Part shown: positions 4,301 through 47,634 of the stretch, in pieces
Position numbering within the stretch: the first letter of the stretch is position 1
Layout of the letters: every line of letters starts with the position of its first letter
Assembly (NCBI GenBank): GCA_951406725.2
Contig: OX597824.1
Location: forward strand, 85,746,001 to 85,810,000
DNA from: Octopus vulgaris
Taxonomy: Eukaryota
Direction of reading: 5' to 3'
Length of the DNA stretch: 64,000 bases
Program-made: the position numbers and the translations under genes
The notes under the pieces: generated by a model
What the model was told of the DNA's origin: nothing
Seen by the model: the letters and a program-made list of their open reading frames with translations, nothing else
Databases searched by the model: none

Positions 4301-5899
4301 ATATCTACCAAATACCCTCACAAGGCTTTTGGTTGGCCAGAGACTATAGTAAAAGACACTTATCCAAGGTGCCATGCAGTGACACTGAACCCAGAACTTC
4401 TTACCACAGAGCCACGTCTGTGCCTTTCCTTCGCCCTCTTCACAATGAACCTGAGGCTCCTTCAGTCCCAGGCTTAATGAACCAAGGGCTTGTCAGTGAC
4501 CTAACATGTTGGCTACCAGTGTTTAATCATAACCTAACGCCCGTCAACAGTCCCCCCACACACACACTCCAGCTACAGATCAAATAGTATCACTGTTCTG
4601 TAAGTGCTGGAGACAGTATAAGATTAAAATAAATCTTAGCCTGACAGAAATATCTGAGCAGAGCTTTGCAGGTGGTAAGATATGTTTATGTGACAGCTCC
4701 TCCAGCAACTCCCATAACCAAACTGGTACCACACAAACTGCTTTTGTTTTCCTCTGAACTCTATTGGTAAAGTGAAGGTGCATGGCTTAGTGGTTAGGGT
4801 GTTGAATTTACAATCATAAGATTTTGGTTTTGATTCCTGGAGTGTGCAATGCATTGATCTTGAACAAAACACTCCTACATGGCCTCAAGTCCCCCCTACA
4901 TGGCCTTGCTTTTTGCTTTTTGAGCCAAATAATTAACTAACTAACTAACTCAGCTAGCAAAAATGAGTGATCATGTGACAGACTGGTGTCCTGTCCAGGG
5001 AGCAGGGGGGGATATAGACACCACATCATCAACATCATCGTTTAACGTCCGCTTTCCATGCTAGCATGGGTTGGACGATTTGACTGAGGACTGGCAAACC
5101 AGATGGCTGCACCAGGCTCCAATTTTGATCTGGCAGAGTTTCTACAGCTGGATGCCCTTCCTAACACCAACCACTCCTGGAGTGTAGTGGGTGCTTTTTA
5201 TGTGCCAGGCGAAGCTGGCAACGGCCACGATCGGTTGGTGCTTTTTACGTGCCACCAGCACAGAGGCCAGTCGGGGCGGTGCTGGCAACAGCCACGTTCG
5301 GATGGTTCTTTTACGTGCCACCGGCACTGGTATCACAACTACAATTTCCATTGATTTTTGAGCGATTTCGATTTCAGGCCTTAGAAAACCAGCCCTATGA
5401 ATTATTCATCTTTTACACTGGCAAAGGCAATTCTCTAATAAATGCAGAGAGTGTACCTCATCATCAGTATAAAGAAAATTACGCTTATAACTCTGAATGT
5501 TCCAAATCATCCATTTGTTTGTAAACTGGTATTAATAACACAATAAGATGAGTGTACTGAACTGGATGTGTAATATCAGTGTGCAGGAATAACAGAACAT
5601 GAATCACAGGGATACTAAGAGGAAATGTAGGTTTTAGAAGTATTTGCAGTGATATGCAAAAAAGAAGACTCGCCGGCATGCTAACGTTTCTGCCAGCTCG
5701 CCGCCTTCTTCATCTGTCTAAATACCACCAAACAATGACCACATTTTCAATTACATTAATTTTGAAATTAATTCTCAATTCCTTGAAATTACCTCCCCTT
5801 TTCTTAGGGAGTCCTCCAGGAGGGTATTCTTTTTTTTTTTTTTTAACTTCACCCAGAGGGGTATTTCATCGAAAATACTTTGTTTATATCATCCAGTAC

Positions 5900-8860
5900 A
5901 ACTACCCTGAACTTATCTCAGTTTATGCCAGCTTCTCGTCGAGCCAAGATAATTTTGACGGGACAGTAATTTGTTTTCACGGCGCTAGTTTTAGGAGAGA
6001 GAACGGAATATTGCAAAAAGAGGTGAGAGAAGCGAAACTGGATCGATCGAACTAGGGTGTTGCTTACTCATGTACGATGCTAGGCACTGCTGGTCAGAAA
6101 CTGATTTTGTACAAAGGGACGAGGTGATGCACAGAAAAAAACACAAGCAAAAAAGAGACAAGGTGATACTGCAGTTTAACATGGCACACTCTCTGTTGAT
6201 CTGCAACTTGTATCGTTCGACTGACAAAAGTGAAAGGGAAACATAAACTCAGGACGGTCGAGGGCTAATTGAAAAGATTGAAGATATTATTTGTGTGCGT
6301 GTATGTATGTATGTATGTATGTATGTATGTGTGTGTGAGTGTGTGTGTGAGAGAGAGAGAGAAAGTGAGTGAGAGAGAGAGAGAGAGAGATACAGGAAGG
6401 GGTAGGAAAATCGTGACAATATTTAAGCGAACAATTTCGTCATTCAAACAAGAATAGGCAAACGTTACACGCACACACAAAACATCTTCACGGTCATTAA
6501 ACTCTTATGCTTGTAGTTCCTCAACCTGCTAGAAATAGCAGCCTTACCTCCTTTAAATCACGTTGTCTTGGAAAGGGGGAACATAGTGAATAATGCTTTT
6601 AAGATACCTCTAAAAAGACCGATTAGTTCTGACTTGAAGCTTATTGGTCGTAGATCTTCAATATTAAGCATAGAACAAAATAAATGACAAAATTGGTTGC
6701 ACACACGCCGCTGTAATCACGCATCCAGATATTTCTTACCGTATCCTTAGATTTGTTTGCACTTTATTTTCCACACTGTTTATGATGTGCTAATAATAAT
6801 AACGAATACCCCAAACTCTTTCTTCATCATTTATCTGTCTAAAGATTAGGACAATATGAAAATGTGACGTCCAAATTCTTCTCAAGAGTATTATTAACAG
6901 TCAAAAGAAAAAAAGTTTTCTTGATCGCAAAACGAAACCTAGTTGCAAGAGTTGTGTTGTGAAGGTATTGTTTAGCGCTAGCTCAGTCTTTTTTTATTAT
7001 ATATTTTGGGAACCGCATGCCCCATTAAACGAATCCCTTTCCCAGAAATTTGACCGCTGTTGTTAGCGAGTCGGGCGACTATGGAAAGTTCCCTCCTTGA
7101 CTACTCGCGTGTGAAGGCGGAAAAGTGCTACAGATGTGTGAGAAGAGATGATGCAATCTATCGAAATAGCATTTTACTCGACAATATTTTCAACCATTGA
7201 GAAAAATTATCGAGTGAGCCCAGGGGAACGGTGTACTGACGATCATGCTTTCCAATAAGGACTCATGCAAAGCAAGCGAAGCGACACCAATTAGGAATCG
7301 AAGTAGAAAAGTCGATGTATAATGAAAAGATAAAGAGAGAAGCATTCATGATTTCTCCTTAAAGAAGATCCTCGTACTTTATAGGGCTGAAGTAGGGATC
7401 AAGACTATGTAACTTTTATGCTTTACATGTCAGCGACATAAGTACTGTATTGCTTCAACTAAAAATCGAAAGCAAGTCGCGAAAAAAAGTTATAAAAGGA
7501 CATGTTGCATTTGTTAAGGAGGTCGATCGGCTTGTTTTAGACATAATGCGGACAGCTTCAGCTGTCAAGGGATGCTTAACATAGTAAGAATAAAGCAGTT
7601 TATACCAATAATATCCGTTACCGTGTCTTTGTCTTTACAAGATACGCTTGTTGTCTATATTTGTCTACAACATAAAACTGTTGTAATTGCCCATCAACTG
7701 CATGTATTTTCAACCTTTTGTCGGTTCACCGAATTAGTATGCATTGTCGTGCTAAACGGGTTACGGTACATTATAAGCTTTTTAAGTGTTAGGTGTAAAA
7801 CACACACACACAAAACAGATTTTTAAACAGAGAAGGGCTCACACCATCACACAATGCGACAAAGGAACGAACACACAGCACCAGTAAACTGCATAAAAAC
7901 ACTCGTGATTTCTAAAATATCTGGCGTCGTTTTTCTTACCAGTATCAAGAAAACTCGTGCCTCACATATCTGATTAAACCGCAAAAAGCTATCCAGACTT
8001 TCAGGACATAGGCTTTGATATTAACGATGAAAAATGCATCCACACAAATCATCTCTTTCCATCGTAGGTGATTTCTGTTACCTTCGTTTGAAATCCTTGT
8101 TTTGTTGTTTTCAAAGAGAGATCCTTAATTGCTGTCCATGCAGGGTTTTCGGTCAAACTATAATTAACGAAAACTTGTATGAATCCGTCCCGATCACAAC
8201 AAAGAACGGTCGTTCGACCTAAGAGAAATAGCAGCCAAATCCCTCTCCAAATACATGCTATCTCAGTAAATGAACAGATGCATCAGATAGCATAGCCTTA
8301 GATATCCACTGCAGATGCGATAGTCACGGCTGGGACGACTTTGATCATATTTTACTCGAAGCCAGCTCGATCAAGGCTAAGTTGGGGGCTAAACAACAAC
8401 TTACATCCGATAACAGAAAAAAAAAACAGATGAGTGTATATATATATATAGACAAAAGAGACATAATCCTAAAAAAGACTTACCTAAACGTGTGTGTTTT
8501 GTCTTTTTTTAAGCAACAGGGTTTCAGAAAATTAATTGTTCAAATGACTTTCAGGTGTTCAGGTGTGGAATTACCGAAACGGTACTTTTCAGTAGTTGAG
8601 GGAATTGTTTGTTGTTGCGTGTTCGATCGGAATTGAACAGAAGATTATTCTAGCGACGTGTTCAATCCGGACCAAATGTCTGCTCGTCGTCGTCGGCTTT
8701 AAATGACTCAATCACTATGATGATGACGGCGGCGGCGGCGGCAGAGGAGGAGGCAGCGGCGGCGGCGGCGGCGAAGGCAGATGCACAACATGTGCCCAAT
8801 TATACGCATGCGTCGAATCAAGCGGAGGTAATGCCCGGATACTTAAACGAAACTACGATA
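5900..8860 (-). promoter_or_regulatory. CpG-rich putative promoter / non-coding 5' exon region of a minus-strand gene leaving the window on the left
   Basis: Visibly higher CpG content; (GGC)n tract at 8728-8773; TGACTCA and ACGCATGCGT motifs; minus-strand donors AG|GTAAGT (~8484), TG|GTAAGA (~7940), CG|GTAAGA (~6740). No coding exon identified. Confidence 0.4.
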
Positions 8861-8957: not shown

Positions 8958-10226
8958 CGATGGCAGTGAGCTGGCAGAATCGTTAGCGCACCGGGCGAGA
9001 TGCTTAGCGGTATTTCGTCTGCTGCTACGTTCTGAGTTCAAATTCCGCCGAGGTCGACTTTGCCTTTCATCCTTTCAGGGTCCGTAAATTAAGTACCAGT
9101 TATGCACTGGAGTCGATGTAATCGACTTAATACCTATGTCTGTCCTTGTTTAGCCCCTTGTGGGTAATAAAGAATTCGTCTGCTGCTACGTTCTGAGTTC
9201 AAATTCCGCCGAGGTCGACTTTGCCTTTCATCCTTTCAGGGTCCGTAAATTAAGTACCAGTTATGCACTGGGGTCGATGTAATCGACTTAATACCTATGT
9301 CTGTCCTTGTTTAGCCCCTTGTGGGTAATAAAGAATTCGTCTGCTGCTACGTTCTGAGTTCAAATTCCGCCGAGGTCGACTTTGCCTTTCATCCTTTCAG
9401 GGTCCGTAAATTAAGTACCAGTTATGCACTGGGGTCGATGTAATCGACTTAATACCTATGTCTGTCCTTGTTTAGCCCCTTGTGGGTAATAAAGAATTCG
9501 TCTGCTGCTACGTTCTGAGTTCAAATTCCGCCGAGGTCGACTTTGCCTTTCATCCTTTCGGGGTAGATAAATTAAGTACCAGTTCCGCACTGGGGTCGAT
9601 GTAATCGACTTAATACCTATGTCTGTCCTTGTTTGTCCCCTCTATCTTTAGCCCCTTGTGGGTAATAAAGAAATAGGTATTTCGTCTGCGTTACGTTCTG
9701 AGTTCAACTTCCGCCGAGGTCGACTTTGCCTTTCATCCTTTTGGGGTCGATTAAATAAGTACCAGTTATGCACTGGGGTCGATGTAATCGACTTAATACC
9801 TATGTCTGTCCTTGTTTGTCCCCTCTATCTTTAGCCCCTTGTGGGTAATAAAGAAATAGGTATTTTGTCTGCTGCTACGTTCTGAGTTCAAATTCCGCCG
9901 AGGTCGACTTTGCCTTTCATCCTTTTGGGGTCGATTAAATAAGTACCAGTTATGCACTAGGGTCGATGTAATCGACTTAATACCTACGTCTGTCCTTGTT
10001 TGTCCCCTCTGTGTTTAGCCCCTTGTGAGTAATAAAGAATTCGTTTGCTGCTACGTTCTGAGTTCAAATTCCGCCAAGGTCGACTTTGCCTTTCATCCTT
10101 TCAGGGTCGATAAATTAAGTACCAGTTATGCACTGGGGTCGATGTGATCGACTTAATCTGTTTGTCTGTCCTTGTTTGTCTTTGTCCCCTCTGTGTTTAG
10201 CCCCTTGTGGGTAGTAAAGAAATAGG
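8958..10226 (+). mobile_element. tRNA-derived SINE family S1, one head plus 7 tandem body units
   Basis: A-box-like GAGCTGGCAGAA; B-box GAGTTCAAATTCC in every unit; units start near 9014, 9175, 9336, 9497, 9681, 9864, 10040. Confidence 0.85.
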
Positions 10227-10262
10227 TGGTGGTGGTGGTGGTGGGATGGGGCGCTGCTTTGA

Positions 10263-11189
10263 GGTACTACTTAAGAACAGTGGTCCCGGCGCGCGCACTC
10301 GCGTACTCGCGCAACCGTGCTAGCTAGTCATAGTACTTATTCTGTCGGTCTCTTTCGTTAAACATCTAGGTTATGGGATGTCAACAAACCAGCACCGACT
10401 GTCAAACGGTGGTGAGGGACAGACACAAAGACATACATACACACACACACGCGCGCGCAGGTACTACTTATGAAGAGTGGTCCCGGTGCGCGCACTCGCG
10501 TACTCACGCATCCTCGCTAGCTAGTCATGACTAGTCGATCCTTACTTTGTGTTTTATTTTGTTTAACAAAAATTATTTACTTTTTTTATTTTGTGTTTTA
10601 TTTATTTTGCTAGGTAGTCGTTGTAGGATCGACTAGTCACGACTAGCTTGCGCGAGTGCGCGCACCGGGACCACTGTTCTTAAGTAGTACCCTGCTTTGA
10701 TTGGGTTTCAGCTAAACGAATCGATCCTAGTACTTATTGTTTTCAAAGCATGGTACTTATTCTGTCGGTCTTTTTTCGTTGAACATCTAATTTATGGGAT
10801 GTAAACAAACCAGCACCGACTGTCAAACGGTGATGAGGGACAGACACAAAGACAAACATACATACACACACACACACACAGGTACTACTTAGGAAGAGTG
10901 GTCCGGGTGCGTGCACTGACGTACTCATGCATCCACGCTAGCTAGTCGTGACTAGTCGATCCTTACTTTGTGTTTTTCTTTTATTTACTTTGTTTAAATA
11001 AATTATTTACTTTGTGTTTTTGTGTTTTCTTTACTTTGTTTTTAAATAATTATTTACTTTGTGTAAAAAAATTATTTATTTTGTGTTTTATTTACTTTGC
11101 TAGGTAATCGTTGTAGGATCGACTATTCACGACTAGCTAGCGCGGATGCGCGACTGCGCGCACCGGGACCACTCTTCTTAAGTAGTACC
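10263..11189. mobile_element. Mutator-like long-TIR MITE cluster (10263-10691 composite, 10881-11189; third copy 41548-41810)
   Basis: About 85-bp TIR GGTACTACTTAAGAAGAGTGGTCCCGGTGCGCGC...; 9-bp TSD CTGCTTTGA at 10254-62 and 10692-700. Confidence 0.75.
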
Positions 11190-11626
11190 CATACACATAC
11201 ACACAAATACTTAATTACTACAAGCTTTTAACGTAGTTCTGATCGAAGTGCATCATTTAACCCGTCATAACTCTTTTTAACTTTTGGTATTTTCAGGAAA
11301 TTTTTGCCAATTTAAAGCAGCAAATATTAATATTTGAAATATTTATGCTTAATCGATTTTAAATAAAATGTATATTGTTTTAACTCAATACAGTGATGCA
11401 CCACCAAATTCGTGTACAGGCAATGCACAAGAATTTCAGCATTAAATTCACTCTTGTATTGGATCAAACAATAATGTCCTTGTTAGATATATTTTAAAAT
11501 TACATATTTTATTCATGAAAGCAGCAGCACACCTTCTCAAGTCCCCACCACCATCGGCTTTGTTTCCTCATAACTTTCAGGTGTGTAAGTGGGGGTTATT
11601 TTTGTTTTCTACAAATACCTTTCAGA

Positions 11627-21651: not shown

Positions 21652-22342
21652 AATATATATTTATATACATAAATATACATACATATATATAACTCCTTAA
21701 AAATGACCTTTAGTAATCTGTAAACCTCTATATTAACTCATCATATAACTTCCAAATTTACAATCTCCACTTCTAAAATAATAATCCCTTCCCTTGTTTC
21801 TTGACTATATATATATATATATACATACATATCATCATCATCATCATCATCATCATCGTTTAACGTCCGCTTTCCATGCTAGGGGTCTGGGAAGCCCGAA
21901 GGCTGCACCAGGCCAGTCAGATGTGGCAGTGTTTCTACCACATCTGATATATATATATATATTCTATCGCGTTCACTAAAATTTTGTGCAGGAATCATAT
22001 CAAGAAGTGGCACAAACTGGTGACTTTTGGAACGTTTTAAATGTGTAATTCACGTATATTCACCTGATGAAAACAGTTTTCTTTCTTTTTTTTTTTTGCA
22101 TGATGTAATAATATCTCTATTCATCAATAAAAAAAACTTGTTGGAAACAGCTGTAGTAAACGAACCATTATCCATCTGTTGTTAGTTAGATATACCATTT
22201 AAGTACCTGATTCAATTGAATCCTCTGTGTGTGTGTGTGTGTAGCTTATTACTACATGCTACACACCTTCTACACACCAGTAGCTGTTATATGTTAAGGG
22301 ACAGCTGAAATCAGGCATTTTTTCTTTTCTATTCTTTTAGCA

Positions 22343-22397
22343 ATGAAGACCCTCTTTTTTATCACAGCAGTTTTGTTTTGTTGGCAGAACACTGCAG
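22343..22397 (+). CDS. Orphan gene, signal-peptide exon
   Basis: Pyrimidine-rich TTTTAG acceptor at 22340; ATG 2 nt later; CAG|GTATGT donor; MKTLFFITAVLFCWQNTA. Confidence 0.72.
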
Positions 22398-25300
22398 GTA
22401 TGTTATATATTATAATGGTTACCGGGGGGCAGTTATTGTTACAGTGATGGAAGTGTTATTGTTGTTGTAATGGATGAGGCTGTAGTTCTTGTTATAATGA
22501 TAATGAAATTATTGTATGCAGTGCTCAGGTGCACCACAACTTGTCAGAAAGTGCATATAAAGCATATGCAGTAATGTACAAATGTCTGGAAAGTGAACAG
22601 TGTATGAGTCAGATACATGCTTGCGTGTGTATGGAGGGGAGAAAATCAGGTGTAGTGTTGGCAAATCTCAGGAAGCATGGAAGTGTTGAAGGATGCAATG
22701 CTCCAACAACTAACAACTGATACTGGCAGTTTGTTCCATACTTCAGCAATACTTAGTGTGAAAAAATGTTTCCAAAAGTCATGGGAGCTGTGCTGTTTTC
22801 TGACTTTGTATACATGTCCACAGGTGTTAGATAGGTGGAGTTTGAAAAGGTGCTCAGAGTTATTGTTGGTAAGATGGTTAATAATTTTCTTGAAGCTGCT
22901 TCTGTACTGCTGTTGTGACTATTGCTGTTGCATTTGTTACTGATCTTGTTGGTACTGTTGTTGTTGTTGTTGTTGCTGTTGTTGATAGCTGGTGGTGGTG
23001 GTGGTGGTCACCACATAAGACCATCCTGTCTTTTGTCTATTGAAGTCTATGTTATCTAATTTGTTATACTATTTTCAAGAACATAACCTGTGATTCAAGG
23101 GAAATTTGATTGCTGAACTTAATAGATCAAATCTCCCTCTTGTTTCAGTTTCTAGAAGGTTGAGTTACCATATATAACAGGCACGAGCAACCTTTGTTTT
23201 TAGAGAAGTAGACCACATGAGACATGGTTCATTATTAGGTGGGCTGTACAGCTAAAATAATTCAAGGTAATTTTTTATTGGCATGCCATTCAGGAAAACC
23301 CATGTACCCCAGTGTGCCCATGACTATTATAGAGAGTCGCTTGTAGCAAAGCTAAAATGTGTGTGCTGCTCAGGGCAACCCTTGAATTTGCTACCCCGAC
23401 TGGGATCTATACAGTCTATATAAGATTATACAAAAGTGTTGCCCTCATAAAAGCTTCACCCGAGGTGGTCTATTTCCCTTACACCTCTAGCAACATTACA
23501 GCTTTGATAATAAGTTGTCAGAAGAGATAAAGTTCCAATCTAAAAGAAATCTCTGAAGATCTTCCTTGTTTTCTTTTATATTACTTAAAGGATTTCTTTG
23601 TTGCAGCTTACCATAGTAAAATTTGTTGTTTTCTTTGTTTCAGGTTGTGGAAATGACGAAAGAAGGTAATATTTGAAATTGAATCTAATCCTTATTTGTA
23701 ACTGTTTGATTGTATAGAGCATTAGGCAACCAGCCAAAGGGTTGATAGTTTATATTCTGTTTCCAGTACGTGTAACCTTGCCCATCAATTTTATTTATTC
23801 ATCATGGAAGCACTCCGTCGGTTACGACGACAAGGGTTCCGGTTGATCTGAATCAACGGAACAGCCTGCTCATGAAATTAACGTGTAAGTGGTTGAGCAC
23901 TCCACAGACACGTGTACCCTTAACGTAGTTCTCGGGGATATTCAGCGTGACACAGAGAGTGACAAGGCCGTCCCTTTGAAATACAGGTACAACAGAAACA
24001 GGAAGTAAGAGTGAGAGAAAGTTGTGGTGAAAGAGTACAGCAGGGATCACCACCATCCCCTGCCGGAGCCTCGTGGAGCTTTAGGTGTTTTCGCTCAATA
24101 AACACTCACAACGCCCGGTCTGGGAATCGAAACCGCGATCCTATGACTGCAAGTCCGCTGCCCTAACCACTGGGCCATTGCGCCTCCTTTTATTCATCAC
24201 TGATCTGGTGTAACACAGTAAGCTCAATTGTGAACCACATTATGCTTATCACAGATTGATCTCTGATATCACAGGCCAGAGATCAGTTAGAGATTCTGCT
24301 TGTACCACAAAAATGCATTCCAGCAACTGCTCATAATACTCAGTAACTCAGAATGCACTATCACATGTGTTTAGCTGACCATGCCGTGAGGTTACTCTCT
24401 TTTACTCTTTTACTTGTTTCAGTCATTTGACTGCGGCCATGTATGAGCACCACCTTTAATCGAGCAACTCGACCCCAGGACATATTCTTTTGTAAGCCCA
24501 GTACTTATTCTATCGGTTTCTTTTCCTGAACCGCTAAGTAACAGGGACATAAACACACCAGCATCGGTTGTCAAGCAATGCTAGGGGGACAAACACAGAC
24601 ACACAAACACACACATGCATATATATATATATACATATATACGACGGGCTTCTTTCAGTTTCCGTCTACCAAATCCACTCACAAGGCTTTGGTCGGCCCG
24701 AGGCTATATTAGAAGACACTTCCCCATGGTGCCACGCAGGTTATGTATTTTTTATATAAATTTATGTATTTGTACCTATCAACCTGGTATCAGTAAGCAG
24801 AAATAAAAGCAAAGGCGGTGAGCTGGCAGAAATGTTAGCATGCCGGGAGAAATGCCTAGCCGTATTTCATCTGCCACTACGTTCTGAGTTCAAATTCCGC
24901 CGAGGTCGACTTTGCCTTTCATCCTTTTGGGGTCGATAAATTAAGTACCAGTTACGCACTGGAGTCAATGTAATCAACTTAATCCGTTTGTCTGTCCTTG
25001 TTTGTCCTCTCTGTGTTTAGCTCCATGTAGGTAGTAAAGAAATAGGCATTTCGTCTGCCGTTACATTCTGAGTTCAAATTCCGTCGAGGTCGACTTTGCC
25101 TTTCATCCTTTTGGGGGTCGATAAATTAAGTACCAGTTACGCACTGGGATCAATGTAATCGACTTAATCCGTTTGTCTGTCCTTGTTTTGTCCCCTCTGT
25201 GTTTAGCCCCTTATGAGTAGTAAAGAAATAGGCATTTTGTCTGCCGTAACGTTTTGAGTTCAAATTCCGCCAAGGTCAACTTTGCCTTTCATCCTTTCGG

Positions 25301-26011
25301 GGTCGATAAATTAAGTACCAGTTATGCACTGGGGTTGATATAATCGACTTAGTCCCTTTGTCTGTCCTTGTTTATCCTCTCTATGTTTAACCCCTTGTGG
25401 GCAATAAAGAAATAAGAAACACTTATCCATGGGTCTCCTCTTGTATCCAGACAATAAGCCTTCCTTTTTCCTAACGGCATGTCTATTCTGGAGAATTCTT
25501 GACACTTGAGATTATCTCCCCTCCCTAAGTGGAGCTACTTTTCATTGCCATTTGGTAATTATGATACAACCTCTAGAGGAGGAGATGATCTTACTAAACC
25601 AAGAATTCTTATTGTTAGGTATTTAACATAGCAGAATTTGTCCTGTGTTATTTCCCTTAGCTCACTGCTGTCTTCCTAGCCACCCTTGTCCCCAACCACT
25701 TCCTTCCTTCTGGTCAATTCAACATATGCAACCGTTAATCCAGACACATTTTTCTTTCCTCTCTCCATTGTTTCCCATCCTCATTCCTTTCTGAAGAAGG
25801 GCATAGGTTTGAAACATCAAAGACTTCTTCCATTTTCCCTGGGCATTAAACTAATACATCTTGTTTGTTATTCCCTCACCTGCCTCTGTCATCTGTTTTG
25901 TTTCTTTGTTTGTTCAGTTTTGAACTATAATATATATAATATGTATTTATAATATATATGTGTGTATATACATACACACACATATATATATGTATACACA
26001 CACACATACAG

Positions 26012-26043
<32 letters not shown>

Positions 26044-26102
26044 GGAGAGAGACAGAGTGGCTATATATATATATATGCGTGTGTGTGTGTGTGTGTGTAT
26101 TC

Positions 26103-26133
<31 letters not shown>

Positions 26134-26209
26134 TATATACACATATATGCATATATATATTTATACACACATGCACACACACATATATGGAGTGAGACAG
26201 AGTTGGGAG

Positions 26210-26246
<37 letters not shown>

Positions 26247-27131
26247 GTATATATATACACACACACACGTATATATATATATATACACACACATATATAC
26301 ATATATTTATACACGCACACACACATATGGTGTGAGACAAAGAGTGGGGAGTAAAAAAATGCTGGGAAAGGAAGGTTCGTTGATGCATTGTGATATTTTC
26401 CTTGGCAGAGAGAAGCCGGACCAGTATTTGATACACTCCAGTAAACCGCAACATGAAATTATACAAGAGACAGATGTTTCTGACAAAGTGAACAGGTAAT
26501 ACAAATAGGTTTCTGCTTCTCTTTGTATGAAGTACAATTATCTCAGAATATATTTTCCCAGCCCACGTCTCAGAATAAAATATCTACAGCATTACATCAT
26601 ACTACAGCCATGCTACACTCTTAATATATAAAAGGGTATGTATGCAAGCAAGTATATATATATATATATATATATATTTATGTATGTAAGTACGTGTTTA
26701 TATATGTATGCATGTATGCATGCATGAGTGAATTTATGTATATAGCTATCAATGTATGTATATGTATGTTTGTAAGCAAGCATGTATGTGTTTATGTATG
26801 CATCTATGTATGAAGGTTTAGTAAAAGACAAAGTGAAACACAGTGGTATGGAACCTAGAACCATGTGGTTGGGAAGCAAACTTCTTACCACACAGCCATG
26901 CCTACTCTTTTACTCTTTTACTTGTTTCAGCCATTTGACTGAAGCCATGCTGGAGCACCACCTTTTTAGTCGATCGAGCAAATCGACCCCAGGACTTATT
27001 CTTTGTAAGCCTGGTACTTATTTTATCGGTCTCTTTTGCCAAACCGCTAAGTGACAGGGACATAAACACACCAGCATCGGTTGTCAAGCGATATTGGGGG
27101 GACAAACACAGACGCACAAACATACACGCAC

Positions 27132-27168
<37 letters not shown>

Positions 27169-30162
27169 TATACGACGGGTTTCTTTCAGTTTCCGTCTAC
27201 CAAATCCACTCACAAAGCTTTGGTCGGCCCGAGGCTATAGTAGAAGACACTTGCCCAAGGTGCCACGCAGTTGGACTGAACCCGGAACCATGTGGTTGGT
27301 AAGCAAGCTACTTACCACACAGCCACTCCTGCACCTACATTTAATATAATATATTACACATTACACTACAATAAATGAATACAACACAACATCATATTAC
27401 TCAACACTACCACAGTTTAGGCTCACATTACAATGCCACACTCTCATTGTCCAACTTTTTTTCCTTTCAGTGACCCTTCTCAGAAGTCCCTAACGGCTGA
27501 CCAAATTATAGAACAACTGAAGTTTCAACTTGGTCACTTAGAAATGCAAATTGTTTCAAACAATGTAAGTACTTTAAAACCTGGTCAAACTATATTTTTC
27601 ATTACAACAATCATTACACTGCACTTCCCTCTATGGTTATCTAATACTACTAGCAGTATTGCCCAGCGTTGCTCGGGTTTGTTTCGACCCCTTTAGAATT
27701 GGAATTTTTGAAAAGTAAAAATTTTGCATTATGTAGCTTGTTATTCTCTTTAAGTGAACATTTTTCTGATTGAAATACACTGAAAAATAGCGACACAGCA
27801 GTAAAAAAATCGTAAAAAATAGGGATTTTCATAGAAAAAAAGCACCTTTTTGATGTAAATAATTTTTGGTGTTAACATGGTCCGATTTGAATTTTTTCTT
27901 CTATGGAAGGAAGAGAAAGCCTTCTTCAATCATACTCTCAATTCTGGTCAACTTGCACCGCAGGGTCTTGGAGGAGATAGTGTTAGTTGAAGGCTACCAA
28001 ACCTACCATACACAGACAACTTCAGCTTTATAGAGAGAGAGAGATTGGGAAAAGCTGATGAAAAAGCCTTAATATGGTTAGTTGAGCTGGTTGCTAGAAA
28101 TAGCAGTCAAATACCTCTTAAATTGCACTACACTTAAAAGCAATGGTTCTCAACTGGGGTCCAAATGACCAATGGGAGTCCATAAAATAGTAAATTGGGG
28201 ATCCACAGTAGTATTTTAAGGGTCTGTGGAAAAATTTTGATTTAGATGTACCGTATTTTAATGTATATAAGGAACCCTTTTTTGTTAAAGATTTACACAT
28301 GGATGGTATTATAATCCCTTACAAAACCATTTTTCCAAATTTTAAGTCCCCAAAAGTAGGGGGTTCCTTATACATGAGGCATAGGTGCAAGAGGCTGTGT
28401 GGTAAGTAGCTTGCTAACCAACGACATGGTTCCAGGTTCAGTCCCACTGCATGGTACCTTGGGCAAGTGTCTTCTACTTGGACCGATCAAAGCCTTGTAA
28501 GTGGATTTGGTAGACGGAAACTGAAGAAGCTCGTCATATATATATGTGGGATGGGGGGGTTGTCCCAACATCGATTGACATCGATGCTGGTGTGTTTACA
28601 TCCCTGTAACTTAGCGGTTCGGCAAAAGAGACCGATAGAATAAGTACTAGGCTTACAAAGAATAAGTCCTGGGGTTGATTTGCTCAACTAAAGGCAGTGC
28701 TCTAGCATGGCCACACTCAATAACTGAAACAAGTAAAAGAGTAAAAGAGAATATCCATCCACTCACCCATCCATCACTCCTTCATTCCTCCCCAGCCACC
28801 CTTTCATATATGATCATATATTCACCCCACTCACTACTACTCCTGTTACCTGAGGTACCCCCTGGATACCTCGTCACCACTGTCCATCTCCTTGCAGATA
28901 TTTCTAATTCATTTTCACTCTCTCTCGTAAAGGTAAATAGTCTTGTAGCTGCTACACACCAAACTCTTCCTTTATACTTTAATCCCCATCAAACATATAG
29001 AAACAACATCCTGCTGCCCTGGAATTGTTGACTTGCAAGCTACATGGTGACCCCAATAATGCCAGTGGCACAAAGAAAGCACCCAATACACATAGTAAAG
29101 TGGTTGGTGCTAATAAGGGCATCCAGCCGTAGAGACCATACCAAAGCAGATACTGGTGTACAATGCAGTCCTTAACACATTAGAACCATGCCAAATTGTC
29201 TAACTCATGCCACCACCACCGCCACCACACCACCACCGTTGCCACTGCCACCACCACCACCACCACCACCATCGCCGCTGCCGCCACCACCACCACCACC
29301 AAATCTACCACCATCACCACCACCACCACCACCATCACCACCACCACCACCACCATCACAGCCACCACCACCACCACCACACCCACCACCACCACCACAC
29401 TACCACCACCACCACCACCACCACCACCATCACAGCCACCACCACCAAAACTACTACCACCACCACCACACCCACAACCACCACACCCACCACTACCACC
29501 ATCACCACCACCACCACCACACCCACCACCACCACCACAGCCACCACCACCAAAACTACCACCACCACCACCACCACCACCACCACCACCACAGCCACCA
29601 CCACCACAGCCACCACCGCCATCGCCACTGTCACCGCCACCATCGTGTGTGTGTGTGTGTGTACACATATATATTTGAGGTGGGATGTGTGTATGTATGT
29701 GTATGTGTGGAGAGATAGAAACAGAATTTTAAAAAAACAAAAAACAGATAGATTTATTGCCACATGCATAAATGATATTTCTGACATTTAAAAAAAGCAC
29801 ATATGGATTAATTCCCATTATGTATGAATATCAAACTCAATACTTGATAATATTTACACATCATGTAATACACTTCTATACTTTACATAACATATCATTA
29901 ACATGCTATTTTGCAGGATACATCCTCAACAATTAACCACATCTGGCAGCTGGTTGGAGCAGCAGACTCATTTGGCATGAAGGATCTCAATCGCGTGCTG
30001 AGCCTGTTCACCAAACTCAGCCGAGAAGCAATTCAACTGCTGCACACCCATGATTCCGAAGGGAAAAATAGTCCCCATGGTCAACTGGTGATGTTCGTGA
30101 AGGCTCTGCTAATGTCTCTACATGAAGCTGGAGTCATAAGAGATCGAAATATAGTTGGATAA
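22343..30162 (+). CDS. Uncharacterised secreted helical protein, 167 aa: join(22343-22397,23644-23665,26409-26495,27471-27564,29917-30162)
   Basis: Five exons with GT-AG sites and consistent intron phases (1,2,2,0) give an open frame: MKTLFFITAVLFCWQNTAGCGNDERREKPDQYLIHSSKPQHEIIQETDVSDKVNSDPSQKSLTADQIIEQLKFQLGHLEMQIVSNNDTSSTINHIWQLVGAADSFGMKDLNRVLSLFTKLSREAIQLLHTHDSEGKNSPHGQLVMFVKALLMSLHEAGVIRDRNIVG*. The N-terminus is MK plus a hydrophobic signal peptide. No transcript or homology check was possible. Confidence 0.75.
22496..22890 (-). mobile_element. CR1-like LINE 3' fragment (shorter copy at about 41128-41280)
   Basis: Minus strand reads CGHVYKVRK...KHFFTLSIAEVWNKLPVSVV, matching the CR1-type ORF2 C-terminus. 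Confidence 0.7.
23644..23665 (+). CDS. Orphan gene, 22-nt micro-exon
   Basis: TTTCTTTGTTTCAG acceptor; AAG|GTAATA donor; converts phase 1 to phase 2 as the model requires. Confidence 0.65.
25786..25823 (+). ncRNA. Decayed minimal hammerhead motif (Penelope-type terminal repeat)
   Basis: CTTT-CTGAAGA-A-GGGCATAGGTTT-GAAAC-ATC-AAAG; same family as the copy at 35931-35968, with CpG-type decay. Confidence 0.5.
26409..26495 (+). CDS. Orphan gene, symmetric 87-nt exon
   Basis: TTTTCCTTGGCAG acceptor; CAG|GTAATA donor; phase 2-2; open frame. Confidence 0.55.
27471..27564 (+). CDS. Orphan gene exon (helix 1)
   Basis: TTTTTTTCCTTTCAG acceptor; AAT|GTAAGT donor; amphipathic ADQIIEQLKFQLGHLEMQI. Confidence 0.75.
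27650..28044 (-). mobile_element. Non-autonomous Helitron, family H1
   Basis: Minus strand: 5' TC start, subterminal hairpin CCCGAGCAACGCTGGG, CTAG 3' end, no TSD. Confidence 0.72.
29209..29645. repeat. Long imperfect (CCA)n microsatellite in the last intron of the orphan gene
   Basis: About 440 bp; explains the poly-P/H/T/G/V ORFs. Confidence 0.95.
29917..30162 (+). CDS. Orphan gene, last coding exon
   Basis: TTTTGCAG acceptor; GC-richer, non-repetitive 81-codon frame to TAA (ORF 29911-30162). Confidence 0.78.
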   Translation, partial: DTSSTINHIWQLVGAADSFGMKDLNRVLSLFTKLSREAIQLLHTHDSEGKNSPHGQLVMFVKALLMSLHEAGVIRDRNIVG

Positions 30163-31865: not shown

Positions 31866-32468
31866 GAAGGCGGCGAGTTGGCAGAAACATTAGCACGCCA
31901 GGCGAAATGCTTAGTGGTATTTCGTCTGCCGTTAGGTTCTGAGTTCAAATTCCGCCGAGGTCGACTTTGCCTTTCATCCTTCCGGCGTAGATTAATTAAG
32001 TACCAGTTACACACTGGGGTCATTGTAATAGGCTTAATCCGTTTGTCTGTCCTTGTTTGTCCCCTCTGTGTTTAGCCCCTTGTGGGTAGTAAAAGAAATA
32101 GGTATTTTGTCTGCCATCACGTTCTGAGTTAAAATTCCGCCGAGGTCGACTTTGCCTTTCATCCTTCCGGGGTCGATTAATTAAGTACCAGTTACGCACT
32201 GGGGTCATTGTAATAGACTTAATCCCTTTGTCTGTCCTTGTTTGTCCCCTCTGTGTTTAGCCCCTTGTGGGTAGTAAAAGAAATAGGTATTTTGTCTGCC
32301 GTCATGTTCTGAGTTCAAATTCCGCCGAGGTCGACTTTGCCTTTCATCCTTCCGGGGTCGATTAATTAAGTACCAGTTACGCACTGGGATCATTGTAATC
32401 GACTTAATCCGTTTGTCTGTCCTTGTTTGTCCCCTCTATGTTTAGCCCCTTGTGGGCAATAAAGAAAT
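31866..32468 (+). mobile_element. SINE S1 trimer with 16-bp TSD (other S1 copies at about 13611-14010, 15312-15535, 24813-25418, 33105-33542, 36711-36945, 37061-37255, 45881-46250, 49708-49915)
   Basis: Three ~185-bp units; TSD AGGTCTTGTTCCTCAT at 31850-65 and 32469-84. Confidence 0.85.
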
Positions 32469-32769
32469 AGGTCTTGTTCCTCATCCCCAGGGTGCCCAAA
32501 CATCGCCCTCCTCATCATAACGAGCTTGATGAGGGTTACTGGTATAGTTGCCAACAACCTCATTATCATCGTTATCATTATCATTTTGAAACCACTTACA
32601 GCATTCTCTCTCTCTCTCCAATGCTAGAAGAATGCCAGCCTCCTCCTCCCCCACCTCAACTCCAACCACCTCAGAACAATGCAATAAGACAAGTAAAAAT
32701 ACAACAACACTGGCCAGTCACTTTGCCAGTCTCCACCATCGTTGCTTGGTCCATTGTTTTCAAATGCAT

Positions 32770-38501: not shown

Positions 38502-38872
38502 TAAGTCATTTTGATAAGATCACGTCTGGTGTCAACAACATTGTGTGTGTTATCATAGTGCTGACCCCAGTGGTCAATGTAAAAAGCAATGTCGACCCAA
38601 ATGTCATACGATCCTCAGAAAGCGATCCTGTAATCTTAGTCATTTCACCCTCTCAAATATCAAGAAAGAAGGAAGAAGACGATTTCCGCATTACCGTTCG
38701 ACTTGCAATGGACATAGTATTTCCAGCTATGACAATCTTATATTACTGTATATCGAATGTCGTCTTTCTTTTTTGAAAAAAAAAACAGATGTGATTTTGA
38801 GGGAGAGCTTTAACAGTTATTTTTACCAGCACTAGTGACCACAAATACGTTCCTGCACTGACTTATTGTAAA

Positions 38873-40463: not shown

Positions 40464-42373
40464 ATCCATTTTCCCGAAAGTTATGATGGAAAAAATAGGA
40501 TCTTGTGAATTTTCCGAAAGTCCTCCTCCACCCGGTTCGTTTGCGCAATTTTTTTTTTGTCACATTCGTTTTCTACACAGTTGTTAACACCCAACAGGCT
40601 GTTATTCTTTCTTTTTTTTGGTTTTTGTTAACGAGTGAAGATCTTTATATTGACCGAAAATTCTAGATGCAGACAAATTGGTATAAACACACCACACCCT
40701 GACAGACGTTGTAAACACTAACAGTACATACACACAGTTATAATTAACTTTTGCTTTATTATTAATTTGCATTAACATAACTATTATTGCGATCGTTATA
40801 ATATGCTTGTTGGTCTACCCTTTATTCAAATTTCAGTCGCTGATTTCAGACTTTTTTTTTTAATCATAAAATTTATTTTTAAACATTAAAATTGCGTCAG
40901 CCAACCTTTTTGTGTGTAGCAAAATGTTTTTATTCTTTTTTTCCTTGAATTCTTGAAACAAGCCATAAAGTTGATTGTATCTCCTGAAAAATTACAAATA
41001 AAATTCGCGTAGACAACTTAGAAACTTCTCTTCTATCTCTGCAAATGGTAAGAGATGCCTACGAAGTTAATTTAAGGTAGATTGACGGGAGTTGAAGTGA
41101 CTGTGTGTGTACACTTGTATATAAATAATAATGAAATTATTGTATACAGTGCTAAAGTGCACCACAACTTGTCAAAAGTGCGTATAAAGCATCTGCCTTA
41201 ATGTACAAATGTCTGAGAAGTGAACAGTGTATGAGTCAGATACATGCTTGGGTGTGTATGGAGTGGAGAAAATCAGCCTTAAAGGTGAGGGGTTTCTCTT
41301 CTCCCGAGTATTCGTAGTTCAATATCTCGGCCCTTTGTGAGTCACAAGAGGCTTCGGCACACTGTGTGGTACATTAAAAGTGTCCACCACCGTTAGATTC
41401 CGGCCCAACAAGCACTGCCTGTAATTGGTATATTGTTATTTAGGCAGAGATAAAGAATACGTATACCATCCGTTTTCGGCGTAACAAAAACCCTAACCCT
41501 AAACACCGGGTGTACGTATTTTTTAACTTTCGCCGGCATTAATAACTGGTACTGTTTAAGAAGAGTGGTCCCGGTGTGCGCACTCGCGCATCCGCACTAG
41601 CTAGTCGTGACTAGTCGATCCTACAACGACTACCTAGCAAAGTAAATAAAACACAAAATAAATATTTTTTTTTACACAAAGTAAATAATTTTTTTAAACA
41701 AAGTAAATAAAACACAAAAACACAAAGTAAGGATCGACTAGTCACAACTAGCTAGCGGGGATACGTGACTACGCGAGTGCGCGCACCGGGACAACTCTTC
41801 TTAAATTACCTTAATTACACAGGTATCAAAACTTTTTAGTAGTACATACATTCAGGTCCCTGATACTTTATACAAGTAGGATAGTAGAACTTTAAAAACC
41901 GGTTATGTTTTTTATCGACCTTCCCGCCCGGTGAGAATAATAAAAAAAAGTATGTCGATCACCAACTGAATTCGAACGTGGAGTAGGAAACTAAAAACTG
42001 TATTTAGTCCCATTCTTTCGTCGGTGTCCAGTGTTATTTATTAATAATATTTGCAAAATAAGTTTAAAGATGGTGTTTTGTGAGGAGAAATGAAAAATTA
42101 AGATGTTCTTCGCTTGACAGAGAGTGGCTTGTTTCTATAAATGAGATGAGACTGAAGAGAGAATTGGATAAGATCTGTTTAAATATTGTAAATAATTATT
42201 TGTTGACAGTAAATATAATTAATTGTTTCTCTCGTCGGACAACGGCCATGCTGGGGCACCTCATTAACGGGGTTTAACCAATCGGCCTCGGTACTTTTTT
42301 AATCGTTAAGTTACGGAAACGTAAACAAACCGGCCATCGGCTGTCAGGTGGTGGTGGTGGTGGTAGTGGGGAC

Positions 42374-42408
<35 letters not shown>

Positions 42409-45400
42409 CACACACACACATTAACACAGTGGGTATAGATAGAGAAAATGGTAAAGGAACATTGATCCTATCTTCTATGTAATTTTTAAGTCTATCACAC
42501 TACATATTCTCTTACATGACTAAATGTTTTGTTATTTAGTAGTAGTAGTACTAGTAGTTTAGGCTAATCCTGCTCCCCCCATGTCCCCCCATTTTTTATT
42601 CGAACATGATGTGGCCAGGATTTCATTATCCAATGTACACAATCCATTTTAAAGGTAGCAAAATGTAATTTACAAGAGAATTAGTTGCTATTTCTAGCAG
42701 GCAGAGTGACCACATAAAGGTTCTCATGTTATTTTATGTCTTATAAACTGTTTTATTTCTTCTGTGAATATATACTATGTTTGCTTATGTATAAGTCACG
42801 CCCTTAATCTAGCGCTAAATCTTGGTACAGATTTCTTATCTTTCAGTGTTAGCTTTGCCTTGTATATAAGCCACACCCTAGGTTTTCTTTTTTTTTAGTT
42901 AAACCAAGTAAATCATAGTACAACTTATCCATGAGTAAACACAGATGTGACCCTGTGTCACTGTTGGGTTGTTGTTCCTTCTCTAGCCAGGCCTGGCTCA
43001 TAAGGGCTGGTTTCCCAGTTTCCTTGGCTTATAGGTTCCCCACCTGGATGGGACGCCGGTTCCATCGCAGGTGAGCTGCAAGATACAGGAGGAAAGAGTG
43101 AGAGAAAGTTGTGGCGAAAGAGTCAGCAGAAGTTCGCCATTACCTTCTGCCGGAGCCGCATGGAGCTGAGGTGTTTCGCTCATAAACACACACACACACC
43201 GCCCGTGAAATTTGAACCCACGATCTCTTGACCGCCTGTCCACTGCTCTAACCACTAGGCCATGTGCCTCCACACTGTTGGGGTGAATGTTATAAATATA
43301 TAGATCTGGGCTCCTGTTACTGTGGAGGAGGGTCTTGTTATAAATAGAGCTCACCCTGGCTCACTGTGGAAAGTTTCTACAATAAGTCTATAGATGCACC
43401 TTATGCCAGTATAAGAATATTTGCCTTTAACCTTTTAGTATTCAGATTACTTGGTCAAATGTTTTACTTATTTATTCACTGCTTTGAATTATTCATGCAT
43501 TCTCTTGTAGCTTTGAGATTTAGATGATGTGATTGTTTATTTTTTTTACAATGTCATTACGGGGTTGATGGCAGAGGCCAGATCTGGCCAGGTTCAACAT
43601 AGAATAAGAATATTTTGGCCAGATATGGCCAAAAGGGTTAATGCACTCCTTTCCTGAATTTGTACTGCTGAAATAAGGGTGTGTCTCCTATGCCATCAAA
43701 TATGGTTATTTTGAAAACTTGCTCATTATATCACACCTAAGTGTGGAGGCGCGCGGCTTAGTGGTTAGGGTGTTAGCATCGTGATTGTGGTTTCGATTCC
43801 TGGATCAGGCGATGTGTTGTGTTCTTGAGCAAAACACTTCATTTCACGTTGCTCCAGTCCACTCAGCTGGCAAAAATGAGTAACGCTGCGATGGACTGGC
43901 GTCCCGTCCAGCTGGGGAACACATACACCATAGAAACCGAGAAACTGGGATCCATGAGCCTGGCTAGGCTTTAAAAAGGGCGCATTTATTTATATATATC
44001 ACACCTAAAGTGATTTAGCGCTTCTAAACCCTTTAGCATTCAGATTATTCTGTCAAATGTAATGCTTATTTACTCACATTGTTTTGAATTAGTCATTGCA
44101 TTATCTCAAAGCTTCAAGAGTTTGATAGTGTGATTGTTTTATTTTTCGAATGACATTTTGAATGAAATCAAAATCAAATTCGATGACTGGGATCCGTGCT
44201 AGTGGAGCGCTAAGAGCACCATCCGAGCATGATCATTACCAGCATCGCCTTACTGGCACTTGTGCCGGTGGCATGTGAAAAAACATTAAAGCGAGGTTGT
44301 TGCCAGTGTCGCCGGACTGGCTCCTGTGCAGGTGGCACGTAAAAGGAAAAACACTATTTGAGTGTGGTCGTTGCCAGTACCACCTGACAAGCCCTCGTGC
44401 CGTTGGCACGTAAAAGCACCCACTGCACTCTCGGAGTGGTTGGCATTAGGAAGGGCATCCAGCTGAAAAAAACTCTGCCAGATCAGACTGGTTCGCCAGT
44501 CCTCAGTCAAATCGTCCAACCCATGCTAGCATGGAAAGCGGACATTAACCCTTTAGTGTTTAAACCGGTCATATCCGGCCCAAATAATTTACCTGTTTTA
44601 TGTTAAAACTACCCAGATTTGGTATCTCACACCAACCTATAATGTCATTCTAAAAACAGGTGATAACATCATCGAAATTTTGAAGCTATGAATTAATGCA
44701 TGATTAGCTTAAAACAATATGGATGAATAAGTATTATATTTGATAGAATAATATGAATGCTAAAGGGTTGAACGATGATGATGATGATTGTAGGTAGGAT
44801 ATTTTGGGTGGATATCTAAAGGGTTAGATATGTAGATCTGTACCCTTGTGTTACTGTATTGCATATATTTTTTTTTCCTCAACACTTTCATGTCTTTTTC
44901 TTTCTTTTTTTTTTTTTGTTGTGAAGGTTGTGACTGGCTGAACTCTGTTCCTCTCTCGCTGACCAACCATCTCAAGGGTAAAGTGGCAGTCTTAGACTTC
45001 TTTACTTACTGTTGCATGAACTGTCTTCATGTTTTGCCAGACTTGGAAATCCTGGAAGAAACTTACAGCATAGAGAAAGGTGTGGTTGTGATCGGTGTCC
45101 ATTCGGCTAAATTCAACAACGAGAAAGTGTTGGACAATGTAAGGAATGCTGTACTACGTCACAACATCATGCACCCTGTCATTAACGACCCTGAGGCCTA
45201 CCTCTGGAATGAACTCATGATAAATTGTTGGCCAACCTTTGTTGTCCTTGGACCTAACAATGAATATCTTCACTCGTTTGCTGGAGAAGGTAACAGACAG
45301 AGAATATTGGAATTTATTGATGTTGCCTTGGAGTATTATGGAGAGACTGGATTAATAAAACCTCACCAGTTGCCGCTACATTTAGAGAAAAATCATTTAG

Positions 45401-47634
45401 AGAGATGCGAGGACATTCTCCAGTTTCCCGGAAAGCTCTGTGTTGATGGTCAGGGGTCAATGTTATACATCTCAGACAGTGGTCACAATAGAATACTTGG
45501 CTGTAATCTTACCTCAGGTGTCATTAAGGTAAGTATTTTTATTTTAGAAATGGCATCTTTTTCAGTGTCACTATCATCATCATCATCACCACTACCATCA
45601 TCATTATCATCATCTTTGTCACTAGTACTAAAAATATTATTATTATTATTATTAACCCTTTAGTATTTAAACCGGCCATATCTGGCCAAAATATTTAATC
45701 TGTTTTATGTTCAAACTGACCAGATCCAGGCTCTCACACCCACCCTACAATGTTATTCTACATTAGGTAATTACACCATCAAGATCTTGAAGATATGAGA
45801 TAATGCTTGATTAATTCAAATCAATGGGAATCAATAAGCATTATGTTTGATAGGATAATCTGAACACTACAGGGTTAAGTAAGGTGGCAGGTTGGCAGAA
45901 TGGTTAGCGTGCTGGGTGAAATGCTTGGTGGTATTTTGTCCGTCTTCACATTCTGGGTTCAAATTCCACCAAGGTCGACTTTGCCTTTCATCCTTTCAGG
46001 GTCAACAAAATAAGTACCAGCTGAATACTGGGGTCAATGTAATCGACTATCCCCCACCCCCAAATTTCAGGCCTTGTGCCTATAGTATTTCTTTACTGCT
46101 CACAAGGGGCTACACATAGAGGGGACAAACAAGGACAGACAAATGTATTAAGTCGATTATATCGCCCCCAGTGTGTAACTGGTACTTATTTAATCAACCC
46201 TGATTAAATCGACTAGCCCCTTCTCCCAGAATTTTGGGCCTTGTGCCTAGAGCAGAAGAGAATATTTCCAAAACCATCACCATCACCACTGTCAATATTA
46301 TCACACTATTATCATTGTCATTACCATAATTATCTCCTCAAACTAATATCACAACCACTACTACTACCCTCATCATCATCATCATCATTACATTATTGTT
46401 GTAACTATTGGGTTGTCCGGAAAGTTTGTGCCGATTTATAGTAGCTTACCTTTCGACTTATTTTAGAATATGTTTGAGTCCATAAAATAGGATTTGACTA
46501 CACCTCCATTTAGAGCACAGTTTAAGCTATCTTTTCATGGAAGAACATTTATGTTCCTATAACCTGTGTTAATTCTGTAACCCTTTAAAATGGAAGATAA
46601 GAAGGTTTGTTTTCGGCACTTGATGCTTTTCATTTTCCGCAAAGGGAAAAATGCTTCACAAGCAACCAAAGAAATATGTGCAGTTTACGTTGATGTTTCT
46701 TTATCCGAAAGAACTGTACGGAAGTGGTTCGCAAGGTTCTGAGCTGGAGATTGTAGCCTTATTGATAAAGAATGATCAGGCAGACCATCCACTACAGATG
46801 ATGACCAAATCAAGTCATTAATTGAGAATAACCCACATTGCACAACCCGAGGATTGGCAGAAAGCCTCAACCTATCATAATCCATCATTCATGAGCACCT
46901 GGTAATGCTTGGGTAATAACAAGTATTTATTGACCTTTTAATTTCCTTTAAAAATCGGCACGAACTTTCCGGACGACCCAATATTATATATTATCATCAT
47001 CACCATCATCATTGCTTTTATCATTTTTTTCTTACTATCATATGTGTGCCTCTTAATGTGTGTACCTCTGTATGTGTGTGTGTGAGAGAGATGGATTCAC
47101 CGTTATCATTGTATTCAATGTCATTAGAAATTGTTAAGGAAACCATTTGGAAAGCAAGACTATTATCCATGTTCAGGTCATGGGTGACACATAGTTATAC
47201 ATGTTTCTACTCTTGTTATTTCAGACTGTTATTGGAGGACCTGAGAAAGGATTTCAAGATGGTTCTTTTCAAAATGCCAGATTCAATAATCCTCAGGGTT
47301 TAGTGCTAAACCACCAGACATTGTATGTTGCAGACTGTGACAACCATTCCGTGAGAAAGGTAACGCTCACTCACACACACTCTCTCTTTCTGTTTCTCAC
47401 ACACACACACACACACTTTCTCTCTCTCTCTCTCTTTCTCACATGCATACTCTTTTTTCACACTCTCTCATGTATATTTACTCTCTCTCTCTTTCTCATT
47501 CATACACACTCTCTCACATGTTCACTCCCTCATTTTCTCTCTTACACACTTTCTCTTCTTCCTCTCTCTTCTACTCTTTCTCTCTTCTCCCTTTCTCTTT
47601 GCTCTCTCTATTTTCCTCTTCTCCCTTTCTTTGG

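Follow-up and report, generated by a model that had tools for sequence, protein, structure and literature searches.

Animal genomes commonly encode small secreted proteins that are confined to particular taxa. Among the described proteins built on four helices, the class I cytokines (leptin and Upd type) have an up-up-down-down topology with two long crossover loops, AB and CD, and the histidine phosphotransfer (HPt) domains (PF01627) occur in ArcB, BarA, TorS, EvgS, RcsD, CheA P1, and yeast Ypd1; to our knowledge, animals have no His-Asp relays. The gene considered here lies at 22343–30162 on the forward strand of a 64,000-nucleotide stretch of Octopus vulgaris DNA (assembly GCA_951406725.2, contig OX597824.1, positions 85,746,001 to 85,810,000), which is referred to below as the window, and it encodes a small protein in which a segment resembling the HPt consensus had been noticed in an initial annotation. 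The locus is already present in the public annotation as an uncharacterised protein and is not new. What is added here is a three-member octopod family, a set of features invariant within it (a Cys-Gly pair, the N86 glycosylation sequon, a helix-2 face, and a terminal Gly), and a quantitative test of the HPt likeness with a largely negative outcome. We consider it somewhat probable, at roughly 0.6, that the product is secreted and glycosylated, is helical and non-enzymatic, and acts by binding to a receptor or partner, probably serving as a signal outside the cell or as a gland product.

Background on the four-helix core of Ypd1 is given in the available part of PMC6863705. For the acylation of secreted proteins, Hedgehog acyltransferase (HHAT, Rasp in Drosophila) requires a free N-terminal Cys, tolerates Gly as the second residue, and depends on a basic residue among the first seven, as stated in the available part of PMC8061759.

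Gene structure and octopod relatives

The spliced coding sequence runs from the start ATG at 22343 to the stop codon ending at 30162, and consists of five coding exons with 504 nt, which encode 167 amino acids (aa). All four introns are GT-AG introns with pyrimidine-rich acceptors, and their phases are 1, 2, 2, and 0. The product is identical at 165/167 positions to O. sinensis LOC115217579 isoform X1 (167 aa) and at 140/167 positions to O. bimaculoides LOC106880006 isoform X2 (167 aa), where both alignments are ungapped over every junction, and the gene and its product are thus as the initial annotation had described them. The octopus gene is judged to be real, intact, and intron-containing, where the support comes from the matching annotated proteins of two Octopus species and not from spliced reads. 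No second copy or paralogue of the gene was found within the 64-kb window. The parts of the gene, all on the forward strand, are as follows.

22320–22342, +, pyrimidine tract and AG (at 22340) directly 5' of the ATG
22343–22397, +, coding exon 1, predicted signal peptide, residues 1–19 (19/19 identical in O. bimaculoides)
23644–23665, +, coding exon 2, 22 nt, R25 and the predicted start of the mature chain, Cys20-Gly21 (C20 and G21 unchanged across 3/3 proteins)
26409–26495, +, coding exon 3, 87 nt, phase 2-2, R26 and the polar linker, predicted to be disordered (pLDDT <50)
27471–27564, +, coding exon 4, helix 1 (residues 64–83) and the beginning of the invariant loop S84-N85-N86
29917–30162, +, coding exon 5, D87-T88, which completes the N86 sequon, helices 2–4, the HPt-like segment (W96, V99, G100, G106, L110), Gly167, and the stop codon
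30424–30429, +, first AATAAA 3' of the stop codon, candidate poly(A) signal

The acceptor-like site before the ATG hints at a non-coding exon further upstream, which was not located. Intron 1 (phase 1) splits codon 19, that is, the predicted cleavage site, and the codon of R26 is assembled across the exon 2/3 junction. Since exon 3 is symmetric, its skipping would preserve the frame and delete the dibasic RR site at residues 25–26. The exon-3-skipped form is close in length to the relative from Argonauta described below, whose gene model has no counterpart of exon 3, and the labels X1 and X2 of the source indicate that further isoforms are annotated.

As a separate observation, head-to-tail arrays of one 160–185-nt repeat unit, which we take to be SINE-like (short interspersed element), are found with 3 to 7 copies at 9014–10227, 24864–25414, and 31916–32472, where one of these arrays sits within intron 2 of the gene.

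The two 167-aa Octopus proteins were 2 of the 50 candidates obtained in a word-based search with exon 5 alone, and relatives accounted for 2 of 14 and 3 of 412 candidates in the other word-based searches. A two-sequence profile searched against 1.84 billion representatives gave three matches at E ≤0.001, namely the protein of O. sinensis, a second protein of 142 aa (E 4e-32), and one repeat-driven false match; barring the last, no non-octopod relative was found among these representatives. The 142-aa relative is Ahia01_000413400 of Argonauta hians (background on the assembly is given in the available part of PMC12682272), which is identical at 71/136 positions to the exon-3-skipped frame and has neither an exon-3-sized segment nor the RR site; it is possible that the 87-nt exon was overlooked in the Argonauta gene model. 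The O. sinensis, O. bimaculoides, and Argonauta proteins are orthologues, all of them annotated as uncharacterised. The false match, P0005 (865 aa), was rejected as a relative, as its score is a sum of seven short stretches in tandem prealbumin-like SpaA repeats.

A match to a known family, which the initial annotation had named as evidence against its own reading, was looked for in Pfam and NCBIfam, where no family came close to the cut-off for the octopod proteins. The ESM Atlas gave no usable match for either query. No credible relative was found in the phage, plasmid, and prokaryotic genome collections: the phage collection gave no match; the plasmid collection gave three matches at E 0.05–0.5, one of which was checked and rejected as spurious because it sits in an Orn/Lys/Arg decarboxylase; and the prokaryotic genome scan gave 74 pattern matches with 0 confirmed, a test of little weight, since both patterns were taken from the signal peptide.

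The core score is approximately 235 bits within Octopus and 120 bits at Argonauta, and because it is halved over this distance, the family is by this measure fast-evolving. The apparent restriction to octopods can then also be explained by an older animal family of which this gene is a fast-diverged member, with squid, gastropod, and bivalve orthologues below detection. Squids lie at roughly 2.5–3 times the Octopus-Argonauta relative distance. When the core score is extrapolated, 44 bits are expected at 2.5 times this distance and 31 bits at 3 times, and since these values straddle the detection level of approximately 35 bits, octopod specificity is indistinguishable from homology detection failure, which is a recognised cause of apparent lineage-specificity according to the available part of PMC7660931. 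However, no fold or family match indicates a parent family. We give the older family a chance somewhat below even; this explanation concerns the origin of the gene and is compatible with a secreted ligand.

Conserved features and predicted fold

The N-terminal hydrophobic stretch (Kyte-Doolittle 11-mer value of 2.51) is followed by a cleavage site compatible with the -3/-1 rule after G19 (A24 in Argonauta), in agreement with the signal peptide predicted in the initial annotation. All three proteins have a hydrophobic start, then T-x-G or A-x-A, and then Cys-Gly, and beyond residue 25 the hydropathy of every 19-residue window is ≤1.44. The protein is thus probably secreted, as far as can be judged from the sequence. 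Cys20, Gly21, and the C-terminal Gly167 are invariant in 3/3 proteins, and Cys20 is the sole cysteine of the predicted mature chain in each of them. The single N-glycosylation sequon, N86-D87-T88, is also invariant, its loop being identical at 5/5 positions in all three proteins, and the Asp that had been assigned to the HPt consensus, D87, sits in the middle of this sequon. The hydrophobic face of W96, V99, and G100 is invariant in 3/3 proteins, and so are H131 and H140, near which each species has additional His residues. The dibasic site that had been reported at residues 25–26 is present in the window product; both Octopus proteins have RR or KRR at 24–26. Since the exon-sized segment holding RR is absent from the Argonauta model, possibly as a missed exon, processing at RR is not family-wide on the present gene models.

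The position of the Cys-Gly pair raises the possibility of a lipid anchor, in which the exposed pair would be palmitoylated by HHAT/Rasp as with Hedgehog and Spitz, and the polar linker would tether the helical domain to membranes and limit its range. The pair lies directly after the best cleavage site in 3/3 proteins and contains the only mature Cys, and Hedgehog and Spitz likewise have a Cys at the mature N-terminus after a signal peptide, followed by a small residue. The layout of signal peptide, Cys, polar tether, and domain parallels that of bacterial lipoproteins, and the Argonauta N-terminus weakly matches a lipoprotein model (E 0.028, far below the cut-off). In the bacterial lipobox, Leu, Val, or Ile occupies position -3 from the Cys. 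The octopod residue at -3 is Thr or Ala and the gene has four spliceosomal introns, and a bacterial lipoprotein was rejected on these grounds. Concerning the basic residue, Arg or Lys is found within the first seven mature residues in both Octopus proteins; however, those of Argonauta contain no Lys or Arg, only His, so that the rule would hold there only if His counts. The octopod domain is unrelated to those of Hedgehog and Spitz, and cleavage at RR in Octopus would remove the anchor. Furthermore, the available part of PMC8061759 states that an N-terminal Cys alone is insufficient, and that, apart from the Hedgehogs, no substrate has been demonstrated among the 87 human proteins predicted to carry such a Cys. 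A lipid anchor is therefore regarded as quite improbable; palmitoylation of the Cys would be notable if it occurred, as the same part of PMC8061759 names only the Hedgehogs and Drosophila ligands of the epidermal growth factor receptor as HHAT/Rasp substrates.

The structure was predicted with AlphaFold2 in two models, one from the single sequence and the other from the three-sequence alignment. In both models, helices are predicted at residues 64–83, 89–102/105, 107–130, and 139–156, and the N-terminal third (residues 1–57/60) has a predicted local distance difference test score (pLDDT) of <50, indicating disorder; the block of residues 61–160 has pLDDT values of 61–81 in the first model. The polar linker followed by four helices in the initial annotation is reproduced in this arrangement. 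The helices had all been described as amphipathic, which holds for helix 3 with a hydrophobic moment of 0.63 and not for the other three, with 0.25–0.31; helix 2 is hydrophobic on two faces.

The loops between the helices have 5, 1–4, and 8 residues in both models, and such short loops imply antiparallel hairpins if the models are correct. The octopod protein resembles the class I cytokines in being small, probably secreted, predicted to have four helices, and fast-evolving. However, because loops of these lengths are too short to form two long crossovers, a class I cytokine-like fold is unlikely on these models, and the cytokine-like character proposed earlier is not favoured as regards the fold.

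Fold searches gave no specific match. Foldseek found 0 matches at E ≤0.001 with either model. VIA-align gave tied, generic helical matches (solenoids, syntaxin Habc, and designed repeats) with Z of 8–10.6, the best having Z 10.6 (root-mean-square deviation 2.7, 93 aligned residues) and Z 10.1 (2.5, 91 aligned), which fall short of the level of Z ~13 that is informative for helical bundles. Among the fold matches listed, none was by its description an HPt, cytokine, apolipophorin, or hemerythrin chain, a result that does not exclude these folds. The sole sequence match in the PDB was the designed repeat protein SG135 (8e55), with E 0.024 for the single sequence and 9e-6 for the profile, where the latter is summed over the repeats. 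The common ground with designed helical repeats and alpha-solenoids (SG135 8e55, 7rdr, TPR/HEAT-like proteins, and syntaxin Habc) is a helix-Gly-helix hairpin loop and the tied structural matches; these are generic helical arrangements and do not imply homology.

The single unpaired Cys and the conserved His residues are also consistent with a structural or carrier secretion (mucus, egg-coat, gland, or haemolymph), which would self-associate or cross-link via Cys20 and perhaps bind metal through His residues near the loop that joins helices 3 and 4. The two hydrophobic faces of helix 2 suit self-association of this kind. However, the protein has no low-complexity or repeat structure and is encoded by a single copy in the window, and searches of the supplements to a skin-mucus and an ink proteome (PMC10138644 and PMC10142993), which may use other identifiers, gave neither an identifier nor a peptide. 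We consider such a secretion unlikely.

Comparison with HPt domains

The HPt-like segment had been chosen by eye from a genome scan, and it was compared with a profile of six Escherichia coli K-12 HPts; 80 ArcB loci and 12 plasmid ArcB matches were left out of this profile because nearly all of them are 75–100% identical to ArcB. The consensus is matched at 7/9 positions by both Octopus proteins and at 6/9 by Argonauta, compared with 5–8/9 in the six E. coli HPts, which confirms the reported spacing, with W in place of H and V in place of K. The octopod proteins and the HPts are alike in having four helices, predicted in the octopod proteins, in a compatible order, and in Leu at H+2, Gly at H+4, Ala at H+6, Gly at H+10, and Leu at H+14. 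They differ in that the His position is Trp (W96) in 3/3 octopod proteins and His in 6/6 HPts, and H+3 is Val in 3/3 octopod proteins and Lys or His in 6/6 HPts. The His-bearing face also differs, with a sequence-based mean hydrophobicity of 0.27–0.49 in the octopod proteins vs -1.0 to -0.06 in the six HPts, and the predicted signal peptide and the invariant sequon speak against a cytoplasmic location of the HPt type. A slightly relaxed seven-position pattern is expected approximately 1.8 times per 10 million residues, given a rough background composition.

The scores on the six-HPt profile were 7.0, 8.0, and 4.9 bits for the cores of the two Octopus proteins and Argonauta, far below the 22.8–36.2 bits of held-out true HPts on the same profile type. 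The octopod score was reached by 8, 2, and 15 of 2000 targeted shuffles, and by 29, 50, and 208 of 2000 shuffles in 7-residue blocks, which keep the helical periodicity. Pfam Hpt was not listed for either Octopus protein at E ≤10 or for Argonauta at E ≤1, where the HMMER filters drop most matches above E ~0.1, compared with E 3.2e-14 for the ArcB control, and a BLASTP comparison of one octopod protein (P0001) with the HPt of ArcB yielded E 32. In Smith-Waterman comparisons with three HPts, p <0.05 was obtained in 1/9 octopod-HPt pairs, in contrast to the HPt-HPt pairs, which all beat 500/500 shuffles. The probability given by hhalign was 2% and 1.2%, in a register spanning 45 columns of helix-loop-helix-loop-helix. 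The reciprocal profile built from the octopod core is not specific, since it gave 9.9 and 8.6 bits for non-HPt windows of TorS vs 4.7 bits for the best of the six HPts. Argonauta has G-V-A-H-D in place of G-A-A-D-S, and so part of the HPt-like motif lies outside the constraint on the family.

These values bear on whether the gene is a degenerate HPt derived from a bacterium, fungus, or protist, which would have gained introns and a signal peptide, and whose His face would have turned into a hydrophobic docking patch. In its favour are the 7/9 consensus positions, the 45-column register, a helix order that suits an up-down bundle, scores above most shuffles and above the control windows described in the next section, and the H+4 Gly (G100), invariant in 3/3 octopod proteins and present in approximately 87% of HPts according to the available part of PMC6341664. 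However, the absence from the Pfam Hpt results of all three proteins, the scores of 5–8 bits, the hhalign and Smith-Waterman values, the unspecific reciprocal profile, the greater distance of the Argonauta protein from the motif, and the finding of octopod relatives only among 1.84 billion representatives all point the other way, and a degenerate HPt is highly improbable. The same very low likelihood is given to the fuller version, in which octopods would have domesticated a His-less HPt that was horizontally acquired, secreted, and possibly N-lipidated on its first Cys. This version would be compatible with the motif seen locally, with the register of the helices, and with G100, and no profile or fold result backs it; if true, a two-component signalling module would have been reused as an animal extracellular ligand.

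On the basis of these comparisons, the HPt likeness is a real local pattern that is weak and non-specific, and it is most likely convergent, arising from the common helix-Gly-cap-helix hairpin. The alignment with SG135 runs through the A-x-x-x-G-x-x-x-L loop, the same Gly loop as in the HPt-like segment, and because SG135 was designed de novo, such a loop can arise without descent. Of the two origins offered in the initial annotation, convergence is thus supported and a repurposed pseudo-HPt fold is not.

Proposed function and surroundings of the gene

A lineage-restricted, probably secreted four-helix protein, as first proposed, is in accord with the octopod-only relatives, the models, and the N-terminal features. 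The following course, which we infer for a secreted helical ligand, would be consistent with them. The signal peptide of exon 1 would direct the chain to the endoplasmic reticulum and be cut after G19, exposing Cys20, and N86 would be glycosylated in the invariant loop that joins helix 1 to helix 2. Residues 64–156 would fold into four antiparallel helices, where the hydrophobic face of helix 2 (I92, W96, V99, G100) would pack on another helix or bind a receptor or partner; this face may accordingly be either core or binding surface. The C-terminal Gly might be converted to an amide, as in peptide hormones of regulated secretion, and in Octopus the RR site may serve to trim the N-terminus. A C-terminal Gly can serve as the amide donor in peptide amidation.

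Several points weigh against a secreted ligand of this kind. The -3/-1 rule fits cleavage after C20 or G21 equally well, a single Gly conserved at the C-terminus is a weak indication of amidation, and the conservation claims all rest on just three sequences. The models are moderately confident, with mean pLDDT of 59 and 56 and a predicted template modelling score of 0.48 and 0.43, and may be compatible with the HPt fold also. On the HPt profile, the octopod cores beat all 152 windows from non-HPt parts of the same kinases (maximum 4.7 bits), and the face that is buried in HPts is hydrophobic in register in the octopod proteins, so the HPt likeness is not pure noise. Evidence on expression, localisation, or the proteome was not found in the literature and supplements searched. 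The identifiers LOC115217579 and LOC106880006 were found neither in the main text of this literature nor in the supplements searched at least in part (PMC9712504, PMC9699675, PMC10138644, PMC10142993, PMC6635378, and PMC12607849), whose tables may use other identifiers, and topic searches gave no paper on this protein as judged from titles and the beginnings of abstracts. If the gene is expressed in the optic, reproductive, or salivary gland, its product would qualify as a candidate for a hormone, pheromone, or component of a secretion in octopods.

Elsewhere in the window, the next identifiable gene downstream is an NHLRC2-like gene at 44836–59251 (+), which has a thioredoxin-like exon and NHL-repeat exons (Pfam) with human NHLRC2 as the best PDB match (E 2e-67), and is a useful synteny anchor; the frames at 57143–57463 and 58811–59251 have no Pfam match and were given to this gene by position only. 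On the reverse strand, the frames at 5991–6248, 4636–4884, 3831–4076, and 2740–3072 have no Pfam match at E ≤0.1 and may be exons of a divergently transcribed gene for a secreted or membrane protein (2740–6248), where the frame at 5991–6248 opens with a hydrophobic stretch resembling a signal peptide, after which comes a donor-like site. A Cys-rich open frame in non-repetitive DNA at 38518–38835 (+) adjoins a donor-like GTAAGT; it has no Pfam or PDB match and may be non-coding. Transposase fragments with a partial DDE domain (Pfam Transposase_1, E 1e-9), presumably of the mariner type, are present at 60697–61471 (-), and short elements with long terminal inverted repeats, identified by eye and resembling miniature inverted-repeat transposable elements (MITE-like), lie at 10260–11190 and 41550–41810.

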